The position numbers and the translations under genes were made by a program. From a virus (Duplodnaviria; Heunggongvirae; Uroviricota; Caudoviricetes): a stretch of DNA of 64,000 bases. The notes under the pieces were generated by a model. It had not been told where the DNA came from. It ran no database searches and saw nothing but the letters and a program-made list of their open reading frames with translations. Of this stretch, positions 2,921 to 61,704 are shown piece after piece (position 1 is the first letter of the stretch; each line of letters opens with the position of its first letter). The stretch spans positions 27,133 to 91,132 of IMG/VR virus record IMGVR_UViG_3300050821_006962; one strand, 5' to 3'.

Positions 2921-3005
2921 TGGAGGAAGAGAACAGAATCGAACTGTCGTCCTTTCAGACGGTCGGGTGTTCGAAACCCGTTGCGAGCCATTCGCACTGT
3001 CTTCC
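2921..3005 (-). tRNA. tRNA-Ser(CGA)
   Basis: Type II; anticodon loop TTCGAAC; long variable arm ACCGTCTGAAAGGACG; CCA. Confidence 0.65.
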
Positions 3006-3010
3006 GTAAA

Positions 3011-3099
3011 TGGCGGACTGGTAGACGAATCGAACGCCCCCGTATCTCTACGAGCCTCCGGGTTCAAACCGGATTGCACACCGTTGCGCGGTACCATCC
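3011..3099 (-). tRNA. tRNA-Ser(UGA)
   Basis: Type II; anticodon stem TCCGG/CCGGA with loop TTTGAAC; long variable arm. Confidence 0.6.
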
Positions 3100-5430: not shown

Positions 5431-5506
5431 TGGTCGACCGCCTCGGACTTGAACCGAGACCGTGTTCCTTAAGAGGGAATCATTCTGCCACTCGAAATCG
5501 CAGTCG
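5431..5506 (-). tRNA. tRNA-Lys(CUU)
   Basis: Anticodon loop CTCTTAA; T-arm CTCGG-TTCAAGT-CCGAG; acceptor CGACTGC/GCGGTCG. Confidence 0.6.
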
Positions 5507-5514
5507 ACTGAATT

Positions 5515-5586
5515 TGGTTGCGCGATAGCCCGGGTTCTGTCTAGGACGAACATTCCTCTGAGCCAGCTACCCGACCTTCATCACGC
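5515..5586 (-). pseudogene. short tRNA-like element (no canonical T-loop)
   Basis: Good acceptor pairing GCGTGAT/ATCGCGC plus ACCA, but only 69 nt and no TTCGA loop. Confidence 0.25.
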
Positions 5587-5869
5587 TCAACAAGCGCTCC
5601 GGTCCTATTTGCTGTTGCATCCGTGTGGAGTGCCTTCGCTTGAATGACTCAGGTATCTACGCTAACATTTCTGCTGCTCTCGCTGAGTACGAAGCCTTAC
5701 CCGTCCGCTTACGCGGCCCGCAACTTCCACGGCACGATGTTGAGTTATGCCCGGAACTTCCTCCAGCGCTTGCGCGCCAGCGTTCGTCTACGCTACCAAA
5801 AAGTAGGCAGTCTTTCGTTGACGCCAGAACGATTCGGCATTTGTGTCTGAACTGTTTCGCCGACAAACT

Positions 5870-5944
5870 TGGAGAACCGGGTCAGAGTCAAACTGACCAA
5901 TAGCGGGTTTGCAATCCGCCGCCTAATCGATTGGCTTCCGATTC
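5870..5944 (-). tRNA. tRNA-Cys(GCA)
   Basis: Anticodon arm GCGGATTGCAAACCCGC, near-identical to the E. coli Cys arm; discriminator U; CCA. Confidence 0.65.
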
Positions 5945-6187: not shown

Positions 6188-6271
6188 TGGTCGCCCACCA
6201 CGGAGTCGAACCGTGACGCCCGAAGGCACGGGGTTTTGAATCCCGCGCGTCTGCCAGTTCCGCCAGCAGGC
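6188..6271 (-). tRNA. tRNA-Leu(CAA)
   Basis: Type II; anticodon loop TTCAAAA; variable arm TGCCTTCGGGCGT; T-arm CACGG-TTCGACT-CCGTG. Confidence 0.65.
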
Positions 6272-6279
6272 GATAAAAC

Positions 6280-6355
6280 TTGGAGGGCCACCGGGGAGTC
6301 GAACCCCGCTCCTAGCGTTCGTAGCGCTATGCAATTTCCGATATACGAGCAGCCC
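6280..6355 (-). tRNA. tRNA-Arg(ACG)
   Basis: Anticodon stem TAGCG/CGCTA with loop CTACGAA; T-arm CGGGG-TTCGACT-CCCCG. Confidence 0.65.
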
Positions 6356-6669: not shown

Positions 6670-6783
6670 TTACAGCGCGATGATTCGCGCGATGATTGGA
6701 TACTTACGGCAAACCCACAGCAGCACAAAAGGCGCTGCGGATGTGAACGAGACCGCAATCAGATACTTCTCGAAGAAGGTCAT
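6670..6783 (-). CDS. 37-aa hydrophobic membrane peptide
   Basis: GGGAGG RBS 5 nt upstream of the ATG at 6783; MTFFEKYLIAVSFTSAAPFVLLWVCRKYPIIARIIAL. Confidence 0.4.
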   Translation of the reverse strand: MTFFEKYLIAVSFTSAAPFVLLWVCRKYPIIARIIAL

Positions 6784-6844: not shown

Positions 6845-6929
6845 TGGTACCCCGCACAGGAGTCGAACCTGCACGACCGAAGTCACTGGTTCCTAAGACC
6901 AGCGCGTCTCCCAATTCCGCCAACAGGGC
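6845..6929 (-). tRNA. tRNA-Leu(UAG)
   Basis: Type II; anticodon stem CTGGT/ACCAG with loop CTTAGGA; variable arm TGACTTCGGTCGT. Confidence 0.6.
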
Positions 6930-6930
6930 A

Positions 6931-7020
6931 CTGAAAATCTGCCGAGCGTTCTACCATTAAACTACGTGCGAGCAAGCTCACACGGCGGGACTCGAACCCG
7001 CACCTCTCAGCTCATCTGCC
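6931..7020 (-). other. tRNA 3' half followed by a tRNA 5' half (permuted order) joined by a perfect acceptor hairpin
   Basis: Minus RNA reads ...CUGAG-AGGU-GCGGG-UUCGAGU-CCCGC-CGUGUGA-G-CUUGC-UCGCACG-UA-GUUU-AAUGGUAG-AAC-G-CUCGG-CAGAUUUUCAG. The acceptor strands CGUGUGA/UCGCACG pair 7/7; GGCAGAU is duplicated in both halves. Confidence 0.4.
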
Positions 7021-7030
7021 ACCCGAACAA

Positions 7031-7360
7031 ATTGGTGGACTTAATTTCCGGGCGGATTTTATCAGCGCGAGCCGCCGTCCCGCATAGGGCACCTTTAGTG
7101 CCGAGTCCTATTGCCCCAAACCAGCATGCGAGGCCCCGTCAGGGAGCTACCCCGATAGGTTGATGGACTCTGTCGCGACAACATCTCCGTGGTAGGCGTG
7201 CCTTGACGCCTCGTTCCCCTTCGCACTTTCGTGCTCCGGTGTCCGTTCGCTCCCTAGAGAGCCGCGACCTCGCGCGCCCGAAGGCTACAGCCCCGAAGGG
7301 CCTGCGCTGTCCGCGACCCTGCAAGGGTCCGTAGTGGATAACCGAACGGCTCCACAAAAT
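7031..7360 (-). ncRNA. 330-nt GC-rich structured non-coding segment ending ...GUCCACCA
   Basis: No credible ORF; at least 6 perfect hairpins (GGCAC-CTTTA-GTGCC, GACCCT-GCA-AGGGTC, GGCGT-GCCTT-GACGCC, CCCGAAGGG x2, palindrome TGTCGCGACA); sits inside the tRNA operon. Confidence 0.35.
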
Positions 7361-7439
7361 TGGTCGAGAAAGCTGGATTCGAACCAGCGTGCCCTCGCTT
7401 CCGAAGCGAGTGAGATAAGCCAAACTCCTCTATTTCTCG
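7361..7439 (-). tRNA. tRNA-Pro(CGG)
   Basis: Perfect acceptor CGAGAAA/TTTCTCG; anticodon stem CTCGC/GCGAG with loop TTCGGAA; T-arm GCTGG-TTCGAAT-CCAGC. Confidence 0.6.
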
Positions 7440-7833: not shown

Positions 7834-8031
7834 TCAGCCCACGCTTCTCGCCGAATTAGGCTCGCGAACCTGTAGCGTCTTTTCGGCAATCAGCAAGTAA
7901 ACTTTCGCGCTTTCCTCGACGTCGCCACTTAAGGCTAGGTGGACTATCTGCACGGTACTGACCCGTCGCTGGGCCAAGAAAATTATTGGTTCATTCATAA
8001 GTCGGAAAGCCAGTCGCAGCGGATGCGCCAT
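7834..8031 (-). CDS. hypothetical protein (65 aa)
   Basis: ORF track only; weak RBS. Confidence 0.25.
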   Translation of the reverse strand: MAHPLRLAFRLMNEPIIFLAQRRVSTVQIVHLALSGDVEESAKVYLLIAEKTLQVREPNSARSVG

Positions 8032-8053
8032 ACATTACCGTCCCAGTGCCCCG

Positions 8054-8125
8054 GGAGCTGGTGGGAGTCGAACCCACTCTGCCGCTTTGGTGGACTGTGA
8101 ACCAGCCGACCGCCCCGTGTTCATC
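8054..8125 (-). other. tRNA-like 3' element resembling a tmRNA 3' end (no full cloverleaf)
   Basis: GUGGG-UUCGACU-CCCAC-CAGCUCC, compared with E. coli ssrA GCGGG-UUCAACU-CCCGC-CAGCUCC-ACCA. Only about 40 nt upstream is pairable and no CCA is encoded. Confidence 0.3.
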
Positions 8126-8157
8126 ATGCGGTGATGAGCCGCCCACGGTTTGAACTC

Positions 8158-8349
8158 TTAAACCTTTCTGTGCTCGATTGGCGTGAGGTCTAACGTCGTC
8201 TCCGCGCCGCACTCGCAAACATATCTGTTGCCGGGTCGTCTCCGAACCGGGTCCCCGCATTCGGGGCATGAAATCAGCCGGGGTGGTTGCCCGACTCCGT
8301 TCTTCGCCGGAATCCATATTTCCGTTTCGAACGTTTCCATTGAACCCAT
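8158..8349 (-). CDS. Zn-ribbon protein (CPECG...CECG)
   Basis: ...LISCPECGDPVRRRPGNRYVCECGAETTLD; ATG at 8349 or 8340 lies inside or just after the -10 box of promoter 8348-8376, so it is possibly leaderless. Confidence 0.5.
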   Translation of the reverse strand: MGSMETFETEIWIPAKNGVGQPPRLISCPECGDPVRRRPGNRYVCECGAETTLDLTPIEHRKV

Positions 8350-14617: not shown

Positions 14618-16045
14618 ATGGACACCACACTCAAGACCTACCGCATCCCCGAGGCCAACCTATCCACCCTCCAGTCGCGCATGACGCAGTTGGCGCGCCG
14701 CTGCACCCGCATCAAGGTCGAAGCACCCAAGCTCACGGTCGGCGCGTTCGAGGACATCAAGTACCGCAACGAGGAAGGCTTCGACCGCGTGCGCCGCGTG
14801 TACACTGTCACCTTGGAATCGGCTGGACGTCCCAAGATAAACGGCTATGAATTCGCCGCCGTGATATCGCCTGTCACTGATGAAGATGGCAAGCTCATCG
14901 GCAACGTTATGCGCCGCGTCCCCGGATTCGAAGGCGATATCCCCACCAAGTTTCGCGAGGCCACTAATTACTGCGACCACTGCAAGGCAGCGCGTTATAG
15001 ACTGGAAACGTTTGTCATCCACAGCGACGCAGGCTTCCGGCAAATTGGCCGGAACTGCCTTGCAAATTATCTTGGACTCACCGACCCGAGCACGCTGGCT
15101 GCTATCGCGGAGATTTTGATTGACGCTGATGAGCTTGCTGAGATGTCAGAGCGCGAAGGCTTCGGCGGTGGCTCAGTAATGGAACGCATTCCTATGGATG
15201 ACGTGCTGACCGTAGCAGCCTCTGCAATCCGCTTGTATGGCTGGCTCTCGAACAAGAGCGCGCAAGAACACGGTAAGACCTCAACGTCTGGCCGCGTGCG
15301 CGAATGGATATTCGGAAATGCGAAAGACCGGGAGCGCTTCGAATTTCCGCTGGTCGCATCCGATGAAGACAAGACCCTCGCAGCCAACACCTACGAATGG
15401 CTGCAATCGCTCTCTATCCACACACAAGACGATTACCGATACAACCTCGCACTCCTCGCGCAGTCTGTATCAGTCAGCAGCAAGAACTTCGGCATCGCGG
15501 TCTCTGCCATCAATGCCTACAGCAAGGAAAGGGAATTTGAGATTCGCCGCAATGCCCGCATCGAGTCTGACAGCAAGTCAAACTTCATCGGCACAATCGG
15601 CGAGCGCATCACTTTGGAAAACACCACAGTGCTGTATCACACCACGTTCGAATCACAGTTTGGCGTCTCCCACTTCTACAAGATGAAGTCCGGCGACAAT
15701 ATCATCGTGTACTTCGCCTCGACCGAGATGTTTGAGCAGGGCGAGGTCATCCCACAAATGACCGCACGCGTGAAGAACCACGAGAACCGCGTGGATAAGT
15801 ACAACCCGGAAGGCGTGAAGCAGACCATTATCACGCGCGCCACGCTGCCCAAGCCTCCCAAGGCCCCGCTGACACCGGAGCAGAAGACAGCCAAGAAGGC
15901 CGCTGCGAAGCTTCGCCGCATCGCTAAGACTCTGCCGCACATTGCGGAGGATATCAGGCTCGGCAAAGGCGACAATGACGATTACACCGCTTGGAATATC
16001 GTGGTCGACTTGGAATGGCAGATTAAGAGGGAGAATAAGCTATGA
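14618..16045 (+). CDS. large early hypothetical protein (475 aa)
   Basis: Long ORF with no recognisable motifs; first long gene of the early operon. Confidence 0.6.
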   Translation: MDTTLKTYRIPEANLSTLQSRMTQLARRCTRIKVEAPKLTVGAFEDIKYRNEEGFDRVRRVYTVTLESAGRPKINGYEFAAVISPVTDEDGKLIGNVMRRVPGFEGDIPTKFREATNYCDHCKAARYRLETFVIHSDAGFRQIGRNCLANYLGLTDPSTLAAIAEILIDADELAEMSEREGFGGGSVMERIPMDDVLTVAASAIRLYGWLSNKSAQEHGKTSTSGRVREWIFGNAKDRERFEFPLVASDEDKTLAANTYEWLQSLSIHTQDDYRYNLALLAQSVSVSSKNFGIAVSAINAYSKEREFEIRRNARIESDSKSNFIGTIGERITLENTTVLYHTTFESQFGVSHFYKMKSGDNIIVYFASTEMFEQGEVIPQMTARVKNHENRVDKYNPEGVKQTIITRATLPKPPKAPLTPEQKTAKKAAAKLRRIAKTLPHIAEDIRLGKGDNDDYTAWNIVVDLEWQIKRENKL

Positions 16046-26581: not shown

Positions 26582-27336
26582 TGAATGTTACGATTGACGG
26601 ACGCGAGGTGGGTACGCAAACATGTTCGAAGTGTCACGGAGATTTGACTCCTCTTCAGCGCAGACTTGCGTATTCTTGTCCAGATTATTGCTGGAACTGC
26701 AATCAAGAGTATCGTACAGAGAAAATGGCATCGGTTCTGGAGACGAGGGACGAAGCAAATAGAAGAATTCTCGGTGGAAAAGGAAGCGCTAATAAGAGTG
26801 CAGCGCATGTAGCGAAACTTCTTGGAAAGACTGAAGAGTGGGTTAAATCCGAACAAGAAAAATTGAAAGCCGAGATAAAGGCTCAATCTGGCAAAGCCCA
26901 GACCTTGACACAGGCAGCCGTGGTGAAGCAACGAGTACCGTTCGATGATTCCAGCGAGAACCTTGAACGAATCGCAAACCACGTTGTGGTCCCTCGCGGC
27001 CCCGGAGAGAATCGCACACCTACTGGACCTCGTAAGCCGTCAGTTTTTCGCGAGCGCACGGAATACCAAGAACCCGCCAACGAGTATGCTCGCTCGAAGG
27101 GTTTGTTTGTGGCAGTAATGGACCGCGATGGTTTTCCTGACAATCTTTATCTTATTCCCGGGAATCCTATCCCATTCGGCGTGGAGTGGAAAGCAGAGGG
27201 AGAGGAGCCGTCGCCTAAGCAGGCGCAGAGAGTTTTGAAACTTCGCGAATGGTGGGATGTGCGTGTGCTCGACAATCTTGAAACTTTCGAGACTTTGGTA
27301 GACACATTCATATCCCAGCAGAAGGTGGTCGCATGA
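26581..27336 (+). CDS. hypothetical protein with an N-terminal Zn finger
   Basis: CSKCHG...CPDYCWNC. Confidence 0.5.
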   Translation: MNVTIDGREVGTQTCSKCHGDLTPLQRRLAYSCPDYCWNCNQEYRTEKMASVLETRDEANRRILGGKGSANKSAAHVAKLLGKTEEWVKSEQEKLKAEIKAQSGKAQTLTQAAVVKQRVPFDDSSENLERIANHVVVPRGPGENRTPTGPRKPSVFRERTEYQEPANEYARSKGLFVAVMDRDGFPDNLYLIPGNPIPFGVEWKAEGEEPSPKQAQRVLKLREWWDVRVLDNLETFETLVDTFISQQKVVA

Positions 27337-60154: not shown

Positions 60155-60400
60155 ATGAGCGTGGCACAAGATTTGTTTCTCGGTCTGGTCGGCTCGGTCG
60201 AAGCAGGCATCTTGACACCAGAAGAGGCGGTGACCGAACTCGCCGAGTTGAAGCAGGAGTACGGTTTCTATTCGGAGTACACGCTCGAAGACTTCCAACG
60301 GCTTCGAACAAATTATCTCTCCAAGCTGGAATCGGAGGAAGATAACGATTATTACGAAGACGATTTCAGATACGACGAGGATGAAGAGGACGACGAATGA
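60155..60400 (+). CDS. acidic small protein
   Basis: AGGAGG RBS. Confidence 0.5.
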   Translation: MSVAQDLFLGLVGSVEAGILTPEEAVTELAELKQEYGFYSEYTLEDFQRLRTNYLSKLESEEDNDYYEDDFRYDEDEEDDE

Positions 60401-61704
60401 GCTTGCCAAACGAAAAGATGGTCGGGAAGAATTACAACGTGATTGTCCCTGAAACTGGTGTGCCAATCAAAATTTGGAACAAGCACGTTAAGGTTGAGGA
60501 ACAAGCAATTCAACAGCTGAAAGACGTGGCTTCTATGTCTTTTGTGAAGCCTTATGTCGCAGCAATGAGTGATTGCCACTGGGGTATGGGCGCGACGGTC
60601 GGCTCCGTTATCCCGACGGTGGGCGCTGTGATGCCCGCTGCGGTCGGCGTGGATATCGGCTGCGGGATGATGGCTGTCCGCACAAATCTCAAATGGCGAC
60701 AAGCAGCTCCCGAAGACGGAATTTTCGAGATATACGATTACAAGCGCATGTTCGAGGCAATCTCGAAGGCGGTACCGCACGGTCGCACCGACAACGGCGG
60801 CGCGAGAGATATCGGCGGCTGGGGTACGGTCCCGACTGACATCGCAGGAATATGGGAGAAAGAATTCGCCGCGCCTTACGATGAGCTTTGTCGGAAGCAC
60901 CCGGGCGCGTTATCGAAGAATGCGGAGCGCCATCTCGGCACACTCGGCACCGGGAACCACTTCATCGAGGTCTGCACCGAAATCGACAACCCGGACTCTA
61001 ACCTTTGGGTGGTCATCCACTCCGGCTCTCGCGGACTGGGCAATCGCATCGGCACATATTTCACCAAGCTGGCCGGAGACCTTTGCAAGACGTGGGGCGT
61101 CCAGCTCCCGAACAAGGACCTCGGGTATCTCCCGGTCGGCACCAGTCAGTACGACGATTACATCACGGCGATTACGCTGGCGCAGAAGTTTGCGTGGCAC
61201 AATCGCATCATCATGATGGAGCGCGTGCTGAAAGCTATCGGTGCAGAGCAGGATGGTAACGAGCAAATTGACGGCTTCAATGTCACTCCCTCGATTATCC
61301 ACATGCACCATAACTATATGACACAGATTTGCTTCGGCGGTCTTGACATCAACCTGACTCGCAAGGGCGCGGTCGACGCGAGCCACGGCAATTGGGTCAT
61401 CATCCCCGGTTCGATGGGCGCGAAGACCTACATCGCTCGCGGGCTGGGCAACAAGGAATCGTTCTGCTCTTGCTCCCACGGCGCAGGCCGCGCAATGAGC
61501 CGAACGCAGGCTTTGAAGACGTTCACGGTCGGGGACCACGAGGCGGCAACGGCAGGCGTGTACTGCGACAAGACACGCGCCGTGCTCGACGAAACGCCAG
61601 CCGCGTACAAAGACATCGATGCGGTGATGGAATCGCAGCGCGACCTAGTTGAGCCCGTTTTGAAAATCAAGCAGTTGGTATGTGTCAAAGGATTGAGCGA
61701 TTAA
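60397..61704 (+). CDS. rtcB: RtcB RNA 3'-phosphate/5'-OH ligase
   Basis: SHGAGRAMSR and His-rich metal-binding motifs; RtcB-like length. Confidence 0.65.
   Translation: MSLPNEKMVGKNYNVIVPETGVPIKIWNKHVKVEEQAIQQLKDVASMSFVKPYVAAMSDCHWGMGATVGSVIPTVGAVMPAAVGVDIGCGMMAVRTNLKWRQAAPEDGIFEIYDYKRMFEAISKAVPHGRTDNGGARDIGGWGTVPTDIAGIWEKEFAAPYDELCRKHPGALSKNAERHLGTLGTGNHFIEVCTEIDNPDSNLWVVIHSGSRGLGNRIGTYFTKLAGDLCKTWGVQLPNKDLGYLPVGTSQYDDYITAITLAQKFAWHNRIIMMERVLKAIGAEQDGNEQIDGFNVTPSIIHMHHNYMTQICFGGLDINLTRKGAVDASHGNWVIIPGSMGAKTYIARGLGNKESFCSCSHGAGRAMSRTQALKTFTVGDHEAATAGVYCDKTRAVLDETPAAYKDIDAVMESQRDLVEPVLKIKQLVCVKGLSD

Follow-up and report, generated by a model that had tools for sequence, protein, structure and literature searches.

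A probable YrlA-type tRNA mimic within the tRNA array of a phage

The 90 nucleotides (nt) at positions 6931-7020 (minus strand) of a 64-kb stretch of viral DNA are probably one continuous RNA domain of the YrlA type, shaped like a transfer RNA (tRNA) and not decoding, rather than two fragments of tRNA genes. The stretch, referred to here as the window, is the 64,000 nt from position 27,133 to 91,132 of the IMG/VR record IMGVR_UViG_3300050821_006962 (Caudoviricetes), and the 90-nt element, referred to as the module, lies inside its tRNA array. YrlA RNAs are Ro60-bound tRNA mimics known from more than 250 bacteria and 22 phages (Chen et al., 2014; PMC4201824). Their acceptor stem is closed and an anticodon loop is missing (PMC4201824; doi 10.1101/312249), and they have already been described as resembling circularly permuted tRNAs, with a structure reported by Wang et al. 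(2018; doi 10.1101/312249).

The module has the architecture of these mimics, is conserved with covarying base pairs, lacks the features that decoding requires and has no Ro60 gene with it in the window. By analogy with the described RNAs it may be regarded as a YrlA-type tRNA mimic that might bind a Ro60-like protein, placed in an unusual context: there is no Ro60-like gene in the available sequence, the site is within a tRNA operon, and the module is apparently fused to a conserved RNA that is absent from Rfam.

Architecture of the module and its likeness to YrlA

On the minus strand, positions 7020 to 6930 read GGCAGAUGAG-CUGAG-AGGU-GCGGG-UUCGAGU-CCCGC-CGUGUGA-G-CUUGC-UCGCACG-UA-GUUU-AAUGGUA-GAAC-G-CUCGG-CAGAUUUUCAGU. 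Between 7010 and 6942 this gives, in order, one strand of a closing stem, a 4-nt variable loop, a T arm, an acceptor stem of 7 base pairs (bp) with a 6-nt loop, a D arm and the second strand of the closing stem (Table 1). Direct reading of the minus strand agreed with the hand transcription of 6960-7020 behind the original prediction, and with its claims that the acceptor strands form a perfect 7/7 hairpin containing one G.U pair (G3.U70; 8 bp if G6977 pairs with C6972) and that CUCGG and CUGAG are complementary (5/5 pairs). The D arm that it described is also present, but is better divided as GUUU/AAUGGUA/GAAC, with four pairs including U13.G22, than in the way first proposed.

The minimum free energy (MFE) fold reproduces this permuted cloverleaf exactly. 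All of the nucleotides that make the contacts of the tRNA elbow and core are present (U8-A14, A15-U48, G18/G19 with U55/C56, U54-A58, G53-C61 and G26-A44), and the Levitt pair A15/U48 is kept in the related contigs L132 and L187 as well. When the two halves are restored to the normal order and joined by any filler loop, ARAGORN accepts them as a tRNA body. Thermodynamic stability was considered as evidence and set aside, as z-scores of only -0.6 to -1.6 are uninformative, which is commonly the case for tRNA-like RNAs; that of the module itself is ordinary (z = -1.35).

The order of parts is that of YrlA, namely flank stem, variable (V) region, T arm, closed acceptor-like stem-loop, D arm and flank stem, and as in YrlA the tertiary nucleotides of tRNA are conserved while both an anticodon loop and CCA are missing. 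The 7-bp acceptor stem is a further likeness to the YrlA RNA of M. smegmatis, which has a stem of this length and is cut by RNase P and CCA-tailed (PMC4201824). The arrangement is not confined to a few algae and archaea, as had been supposed, since the YrlA tRNA mimics of bacteria and phages share it (PMC4201824).

YrlA is the sole Rfam family besides tRNA and RNase P that matches the tRNA array. The match, at 6922-7022 on the minus strand, spans the whole model (1-114) with 32.7 bits (E = 5.7e-4 over 12 kb, or 2.5e-5 in 521 nt). For calibration, viral contigs were scanned with a T-loop...D-arm pattern. Nine viral YrlA-like RNAs adjoining TROVE or DUF2828 genes reach only 30.8-43.9 bits with the same model, so the score of the module is typical for phage members. 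The loci concerned include L058, L060, L104 and L113, which adjoin TROVE genes, and L022 and L056, which adjoin DUF2828/DUF7788 genes and whose RNAs score 34-37 bits. Acceptor hairpins closed by 7/7 pairs were found in 28 of the 118 pattern-matched viral loci, compared with about 0.1% expected. The variant that lacks a V arm and has a 5/5 closing stem also adjoins TROVE (L113) and DUF2828 (L056), and the same variant is found inside the tRNA arrays of unrelated phages (the L012/L071 group, L027 and L097).

Some of these other loci merit description in their own right. Permuted tRNA-like modules are present in the arrays of unrelated large phages at L071 7912-8130 and also in L012, L040, L059 and L112; the L071 module scores 41.9 bits on the YrlA model and is flanked by two more lone T arms with a repeated CCGGAAAA motif. 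L027 carries two modules in tandem at 6195-6320. No TROVE gene was found in the fetched flanks of the L071 group or of L027. Proteins with DUF2828 and DUF7788, and not TROVE, lie beside YrlA-like RNAs at L022 12250-13680, L053 3722-5158 and L056 224-1606, the last with a weak vWA match too, and may constitute a divergent family of Ro60-like partners.

Table 1. Features of the module, the adjoining RNA and related loci (positions refer to the window unless a contig is named)
Feature	Position	Strand	Remarks
tRNA-Pro(CGG)	7361..7439	-	Upstream neighbour and syntenic anchor
Variable G+C-rich 5′ extension	7192..7360	-	Starts after the AUUUU spacer following the CCA of tRNA-Pro(CGG); missing from the 198-nt version in L254
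Core of conserved structured RNA	7030..7191	-	Adjoins the module on its 5′ side; in all six contigs, nhmmer and covariance model, 87-150 bits
5′ flank motif GGCAGAUGAG	7011..7020	-	Rfam alignment places it on the YrlA 5′ strand cggCgaAUGC
Closing stem, 5′ strand CUGAG	7006..7010	-	Position of anticodon-stem nt 39-43; pairs 5/5 with 6946-6942
Variable loop AGGU	7002..7005	-	4 nt, no V stem-loop; from the sequence
T arm GCGGG-UUCGAGU-CCCGC	6985..7001	-	Sequence, Rfam alignment, MFE fold
Closed acceptor-like hairpin	6965..6984	-	CGUGUGA (66-72), G73, loop CUUGC, UCGCACG (1-7); no CCA
U8 A9, then D arm GUUU-AAUGGUA-GAAC	6948..6964	-	Sequence, Rfam alignment, MFE fold
G26, then closing stem, 3′ strand CUCGG	6942..6947	-	Position of nt 27-31
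CAG, then AUUUUCAGU	6930..6941	-	Generic inter-tRNA spacer / leader of tRNA-Leu; outside any tRNA loop
tRNA-Leu(UAG)	6845..6929	-	Downstream neighbour and syntenic anchor
Upstream RNA locus	7030-7360	-	Window
Upstream RNA locus	L254 1436-1633; L126 4989-5463; L187 772-1367; L238 9559-10234; L132 2812-3450		Relatives
RNase P RNA orthologues	L238 8429-8729; L132 1541-1842; L126 3228-3487		66-102 bits

Conservation of the module and of the RNA upstream of it

No close relative of the window is present in INPHARED, where megablast and blastn searches with the region and 24 kb of the window gave nothing beyond generic matches to tRNA-Leu and tRNA-Pro. An exact-pattern search for the module among viral contigs and a search with the neighbouring 285-aa protein likewise yielded no orthologue. 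Relatives were instead reached through metagenomic homologues of a 475-aa protein (14618-16045), which serves as a marker, together with a conserved motif. The interval from tRNA-Pro to tRNA-Leu(UAG) is common to six contigs: the window, L126 (equivalent to L134 and L182), L132, L187, L238 and L254. Of these, the window, L132 and L187 carry the module; at its position L126 and L238 have unrelated hairpins, and L254 has a minimal 198-nt RNA. The marker proteins of the contigs that retain the module are only 58-67% identical to that of the window. Two further contigs with 71-78% marker identity, L119 and L124, have rearranged arrays and no YrlA match in the parts that were fetched.

Rfam's YrlA model matches the module at 36.9 bits in L132 and 23.9 bits in L187, and its helices covary. 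The closing stem, CUGAG/CUCGG in the window, is CCGGU/ACCGG in L132 and ACCGG/CCGGU in L187; all five pairs are kept, through double-sided changes in four of them and a one-sided change in the fifth. In the T stem one pair has changed on both sides (GUGGG/CCCAC in L132), and in the D stem, GCUC/GAGC in L132 and GCUU/GAGC in L187, one pair has a double-sided and another a one-sided change, while the acceptor stem has five pairs with double-sided changes among the relatives. Compensatory changes at the same site in relatives rule out a recent scar, and no tRNA of the window is a close paralogue of either half. The original prediction had also drawn attention to a duplicated GGCAGAU at the open ends. 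The repeat is real (7020-7014 and 6943-6937) but incidental rather than the signature of a junction: a 7-mer direct repeat arises in 20% of shuffles, and the 3′ copy is missing from L132 and L187. The GG of the first copy (G7020 and G7019) pairs with an upstream CC, closing a hairpin at 7038-7019 (CCACC 7038-7034 / GGUGG 7023-7019), and the second copy consists of the closing-stem GG, CAG and the start of the generic leader AUUUUCAGU. Within the 5′ flank, CAGAUGAG is a conserved linker; its sequence is CAGAWGAG among relatives, and the viral YrlA-like RNA of L067 has GCAGAUG there.

A structured RNA of about 330 nt lies immediately upstream, and the suspicion that it is connected with the module was well founded. 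Its core contains three hairpins with compensatory changes, and its conserved blocks are GGGUAGCUCCC, CCUCGCnnGCUGGUwwGGGGCA, a covarying GGCGG/CCGCC hairpin and CGCCCGGAwUUAAG; Rfam gives no match at E<=10. The surrounding array comprises 29 tRNA genes on the minus strand, from 8582 to 2499 (ARAGORN), most of them preceded by the stereotyped spacer A(U/G)UUU(U)C(U/A)GU. Standard spacers bound the core and module as a whole and none separates them, and no promoter-like or terminator-like site is found within 7719-6845. The interpretation that follows is of one processed unit of some 410-420 nt (~7354-6942). The 330 nt are thus not a separate insert, and the module is most likely the 3′ domain of the unit. 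The replacement of the module by other stable hairpins in relatives fits the role of a modular, swappable end domain.

Several other identities for the upstream RNA were examined and rejected. A group I intron, a hammerhead or another ribozyme finds no support in Rfam at E<=10, and for the hammerhead an essential U of CUGAUGAG is not matched in CAGAUGAG, which is also variable among relatives. A small peptide encoded by the CCUCGC..GCUGGU block was dismissed on inspection, as the frames differ in length and share no conserved start codon. A terminal helix of ACAGAGAG and UUUUCUGU closing the whole unit was discarded because UUUUCUGU is a generic tRNA leader across the array. Perfect palindromes of differing sequence (UGUCGCGACA, GUUGCAAC, GUUCUAGAAC) are seen just 5′ of an ACAGAG motif in the window (7170-7185, minus strand), L126, L254 and L187.

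The module is probably co-transcribed with the phage tRNA operon, and a stem built from its flanks stands in place of the anticodon stem. By analogy with characterised YrlA RNAs, it would fold into the L-shape of tRNA and be handled by factors that recognise tRNA; YrlA RNAs are characteristically bound by Ro60/Rsr and modified by TruB and DusA. RNase P probably cuts within the acceptor loop, 5′ of U6971, because this stem, like that of M. smegmatis YrlA, is a complete one of 7 bp. Trimming of the upstream end, perhaps with addition of CCA, could follow, and the product would be a tRNA-like body, nicked yet still base-paired, which would provide the attached RNA with a nuclease-resistant, protein-recruiting end, and RNase P cleavage at the 5′ end of tRNA-Leu(UAG) would set the 3′ end of the unit. 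In this respect it would resemble MALAT1 mascRNA and MEN-beta, where a tRNA-shaped element is found at the 3′ side of a longer RNA and RNase P defines the ends (doi 10.1101/312249), except that those elements keep the normal order and have the RNase P cut on their 5′ side, whereas here the cut would fall within the acceptor loop.

Weighing the identity of the module

A number of findings weigh against assignment to YrlA. The score of the module is below the Rfam gathering score of 69 bits (RF02553), and Rfam's outer stem takes GCC from tRNA-Leu. Its 5′ strand, GGCAGAUG, has two mismatches to the published GNCGAAN0-1G; that of L187, GGCGGAAG, has one, and comparable variants occur in viral YrlA-like RNAs (GCAGAUG in L067, GCAGAGAAC in L058 and GCGCAGGC in L021, L098 and L104). 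Where YrlA has a V stem-loop that begins with YUAY, the module has the 4-nt loop AGGU. The YrlA genes on record are no more than 4 kb away from rsr (PMC4201824), and no Ro60/TROVE gene is found on the same strand at about that distance, or elsewhere in the 64-kb window. Custom profiles at E<=10 detect no similarity to TROVE or DUF2828 among the window's open reading frames (ORFs) of at least 60 aa, Pfam finds neither domain among the longest ORFs down to ~100 aa, and both are absent from ~275 kb of fetched relatives' loci (partly redundant). A Ro60-type partner, if there is any, would have to come from a gene beyond the window or from the host. Also unlike YrlA, the module sits in a tRNA operon, apparently fused to a conserved core of ~160 nt and a variable 5′ extension, and close relatives swap it for other hairpins: L126, L238 and L254 do without it, so the upstream RNA does not depend on it. 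In L187 the acceptor is another 7-bp stem altogether, which ends in a UUCG cap and has no discriminator base or linker, and that of L132 is degenerate (4/7 pairs), so that RNase P cleavage is not a conserved feature.

The reading originally favoured, that of a genuine circularly permuted tRNA, requires that the ends be joined, for example by the phage RtcB, and that RNase P and a 3′ enzyme open the acceptor loop to release a decoding tRNA. We consider this highly improbable, although the halves do give a complete tRNA body with every tertiary-contact nucleotide, un-permuted constructs pass ARAGORN, and the phage possesses both an RtcB ligase gene (60397-61704) and its own RNase P RNA. Circularly permuted tRNA genes were reportedly found in Cyanidioschyzon merolae by Soma and colleagues in 2007, and also occur in other algae and in Thermofilum. 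The module shares with such genes a leading 3′ half, a short acceptor linker and outermost anticodon-stem strands, and to this extent the arrangement first described stands; a gene yielding a decoding tRNA does not. No join produces a 7-nt loop with U33, the join at the shared CAGAU giving the 8-nt CAGAUGAG, and there is no bulge-helix-bulge junction or conserved isoacceptor identity. L132 and L187 have different flanks, and on the 3′ side the flank is a generic tRNA leader. CCA is not encoded, in contrast to 29 of the 29 array tRNAs. Three relatives dispense with the module, and the tetraloop-capped acceptor of L187 and the degenerate one of L132 are equally hard to reconcile with a tRNA. The Pfam scan of the longest ORFs found no tRNA-splicing endonuclease and no CCA-adding enzyme, leaving RtcB as the only RNA-repair enzyme. 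RtcB requires an end with a 3′-phosphate or cyclic phosphate, which RNase P cleavage does not yield.

The other explanation offered at the outset was a non-functional scar, left when recombination or a mobile element split a tRNA gene, or duplicated one in tandem and then truncated it. The tRNA arrays of this phage group are heavily rearranged, HNH genes occur in those of relatives, and tandem tRNAs of the same isoacceptor can mimic complementary acceptor strands (L074, L031), but there is little to recommend a scar here. The homologous arrays of related phages have the module at the same site in contigs with 58-67% marker identity, where compensatory changes in L132 and L187 preserve all four helices; this refutes a scar. 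Neither half has a close paralogue among the window tRNAs, the linker is devoid of the CCA and spacer expected from a tandem pair, and the architecture recurs in unrelated phages and beside Ro60 genes. An alanine acceptor resembling a two-piece transfer-messenger RNA (tmRNA) is scarcely credible. Two-piece, permuted tmRNA genes occur in alpha-proteobacteria and cyanobacteria. As in these, the T arm and the 3′ strand of the acceptor precede its 5′ strand, the layout equals that of a tmRNA permuted at the P2a/PK1 junction (as reasoned from known tmRNA architecture), and the window stem has G3.U70. Unlike them, the module possesses a complete D arm and a counterpart of the anticodon stem, with no pseudoknot signature and, on inspection, no conserved tag-like reading frame. 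ARAGORN and all of the Rfam tmRNA models find nothing in either the native or the un-permuted order, and G3.U70 is restricted to the window, since L187 has U3.G70 and no linker, L132 is degenerate and three relatives are without the module.

A different line of thought arises from the RNase P RNA of the phage. A bacterial class A RNase P RNA is encoded inside the array at 5510-5799 (minus strand), with 102 bits against a gathering score of 100, and in the Rfam alignment it and its orthologues (Table 1) have gaps over CR-II, P12, CR-III, P13 and P14. Judged from its sequence, its S-domain appears strongly reduced, and a literature search found no report of such a phage-encoded reduced RNase P RNA. 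The upstream RNA might thus be a separate S-domain-like binder of the tRNA elbow that complements the phage RNase P RNA, with the module as its pseudo-substrate or docking partner, a proposal that we consider very unlikely. Besides the gaps in the phage RNA, it can draw on the sequence UGCAACAGAGAG(A)AAA in L254 and L126, which is 15/16 identical to nt 125-141 of E. coli rnpB (none of 300 shuffles scored as high), on weaker colinear matches at rnpB 230-245 and 310-334, and on a review proposing that viral RNAs may reuse interdigitated T-loops against tRNA-like structures (PMC4919913). However, with filters off the core covariance model finds nothing in E. coli rnpB (best E >= 0.16, on the wrong strand or outside the gene), and the upstream RNA has no significant similarity to the phage rnpB genes. 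The window retains only ACAGAG of the CR-II-like motif, the GCUGGUWW block lies in a hairpin loop and not, as in CR-III, in a junction, and the other colinear rnpB matches are individually at chance level. No CR-II - P12 - CR-III module was detected in the upstream RNA, nor any Rfam RNase P match. In a broader form, the unit of ~410-420 nt would be a new phage RNA that exploits the tRNA shape, for example as a trans-acting, elbow-binding partner of RNase P RNA, and Ro60-independent mimics would be regular cargo of phage arrays; this too seems unlikely.

The assignment to YrlA has wider significance in that lying next to Ro60 genes is what has hitherto defined these mimics. Here the domain has no Ro60 gene in the available sequence and is found within a tRNA operon, with a second conserved RNA attached and in a phage group that has its own reduced RNase P RNA, and confirmation would tie the role of the mimic to tRNA processing rather than to Ro60 alone. 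The relatives with the mimic, with unrelated hairpins at the same site and with a minimal 198-nt RNA provide a compact natural test system. Annotators should also be aware that tRNA halves which look "split" or "permuted" in phage arrays usually turn out to be mimics of this kind or tandem tRNAs.

The tRNA array and its surroundings

The window is phage-like, with PHROG matches, a primase-polymerase, a UvrD helicase, the RtcB ligase and a cluster of sugar-modification genes. The RtcB gene (plus strand; Pfam E = 8.6e-106) is ~53 kb from the module, and no Ro60-like gene adjoins it. Several of the array tRNAs are unusually long because of insertions in or close to the variable region (Met, 89 nt; Asn, 88; Pro(UGG), 89; Pro(CGG), 79).

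The array could contain more non-canonical tRNA-like RNAs. An orphan T arm, GUGGG-UUCGACU-CCCAC, at 8040-8100 (minus strand) lies inside the non-coding gap 8157-7720 and is followed by CAGCUCC-C-GGGGCACUG, which forms a closed acceptor hairpin resembling that of tmRNA or tRNA-Ala, with no D arm. ARAGORN calls this locus a permuted tmRNA only at a relaxed threshold of 80%, and the tag peptide is implausible. A listed ORF of 108 aa (7991-8317) that overlaps this T arm is unlikely to be genuine; the real gene there is likely to be a 60-aa zinc-ribbon ORF (CPECG...CECG) at 8158-8340 (minus strand), upstream of which are promoter-like sites at 8493-8465 and 8376-8348. Further orphan T arms are found at 5442-5458, 3023-3039, 2964-2980 and 2932-2948. 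Four minus-strand matches that ARAGORN missed are tRNA-like: 5435-5505 and 5873-5944 (tRNA, 27 and 38 bits) and 2925-3005 and 3015-3099 (weakly tRNA-Sec-like, 28 and 27 bits). Between tRNA-Leu(UAG) and tRNA-Arg(UCU), a hydrophobic ORF of ~37 aa is encoded at 6670-6783 (minus strand), preceded by a strong Shine-Dalgarno sequence, AAGGGAGG.

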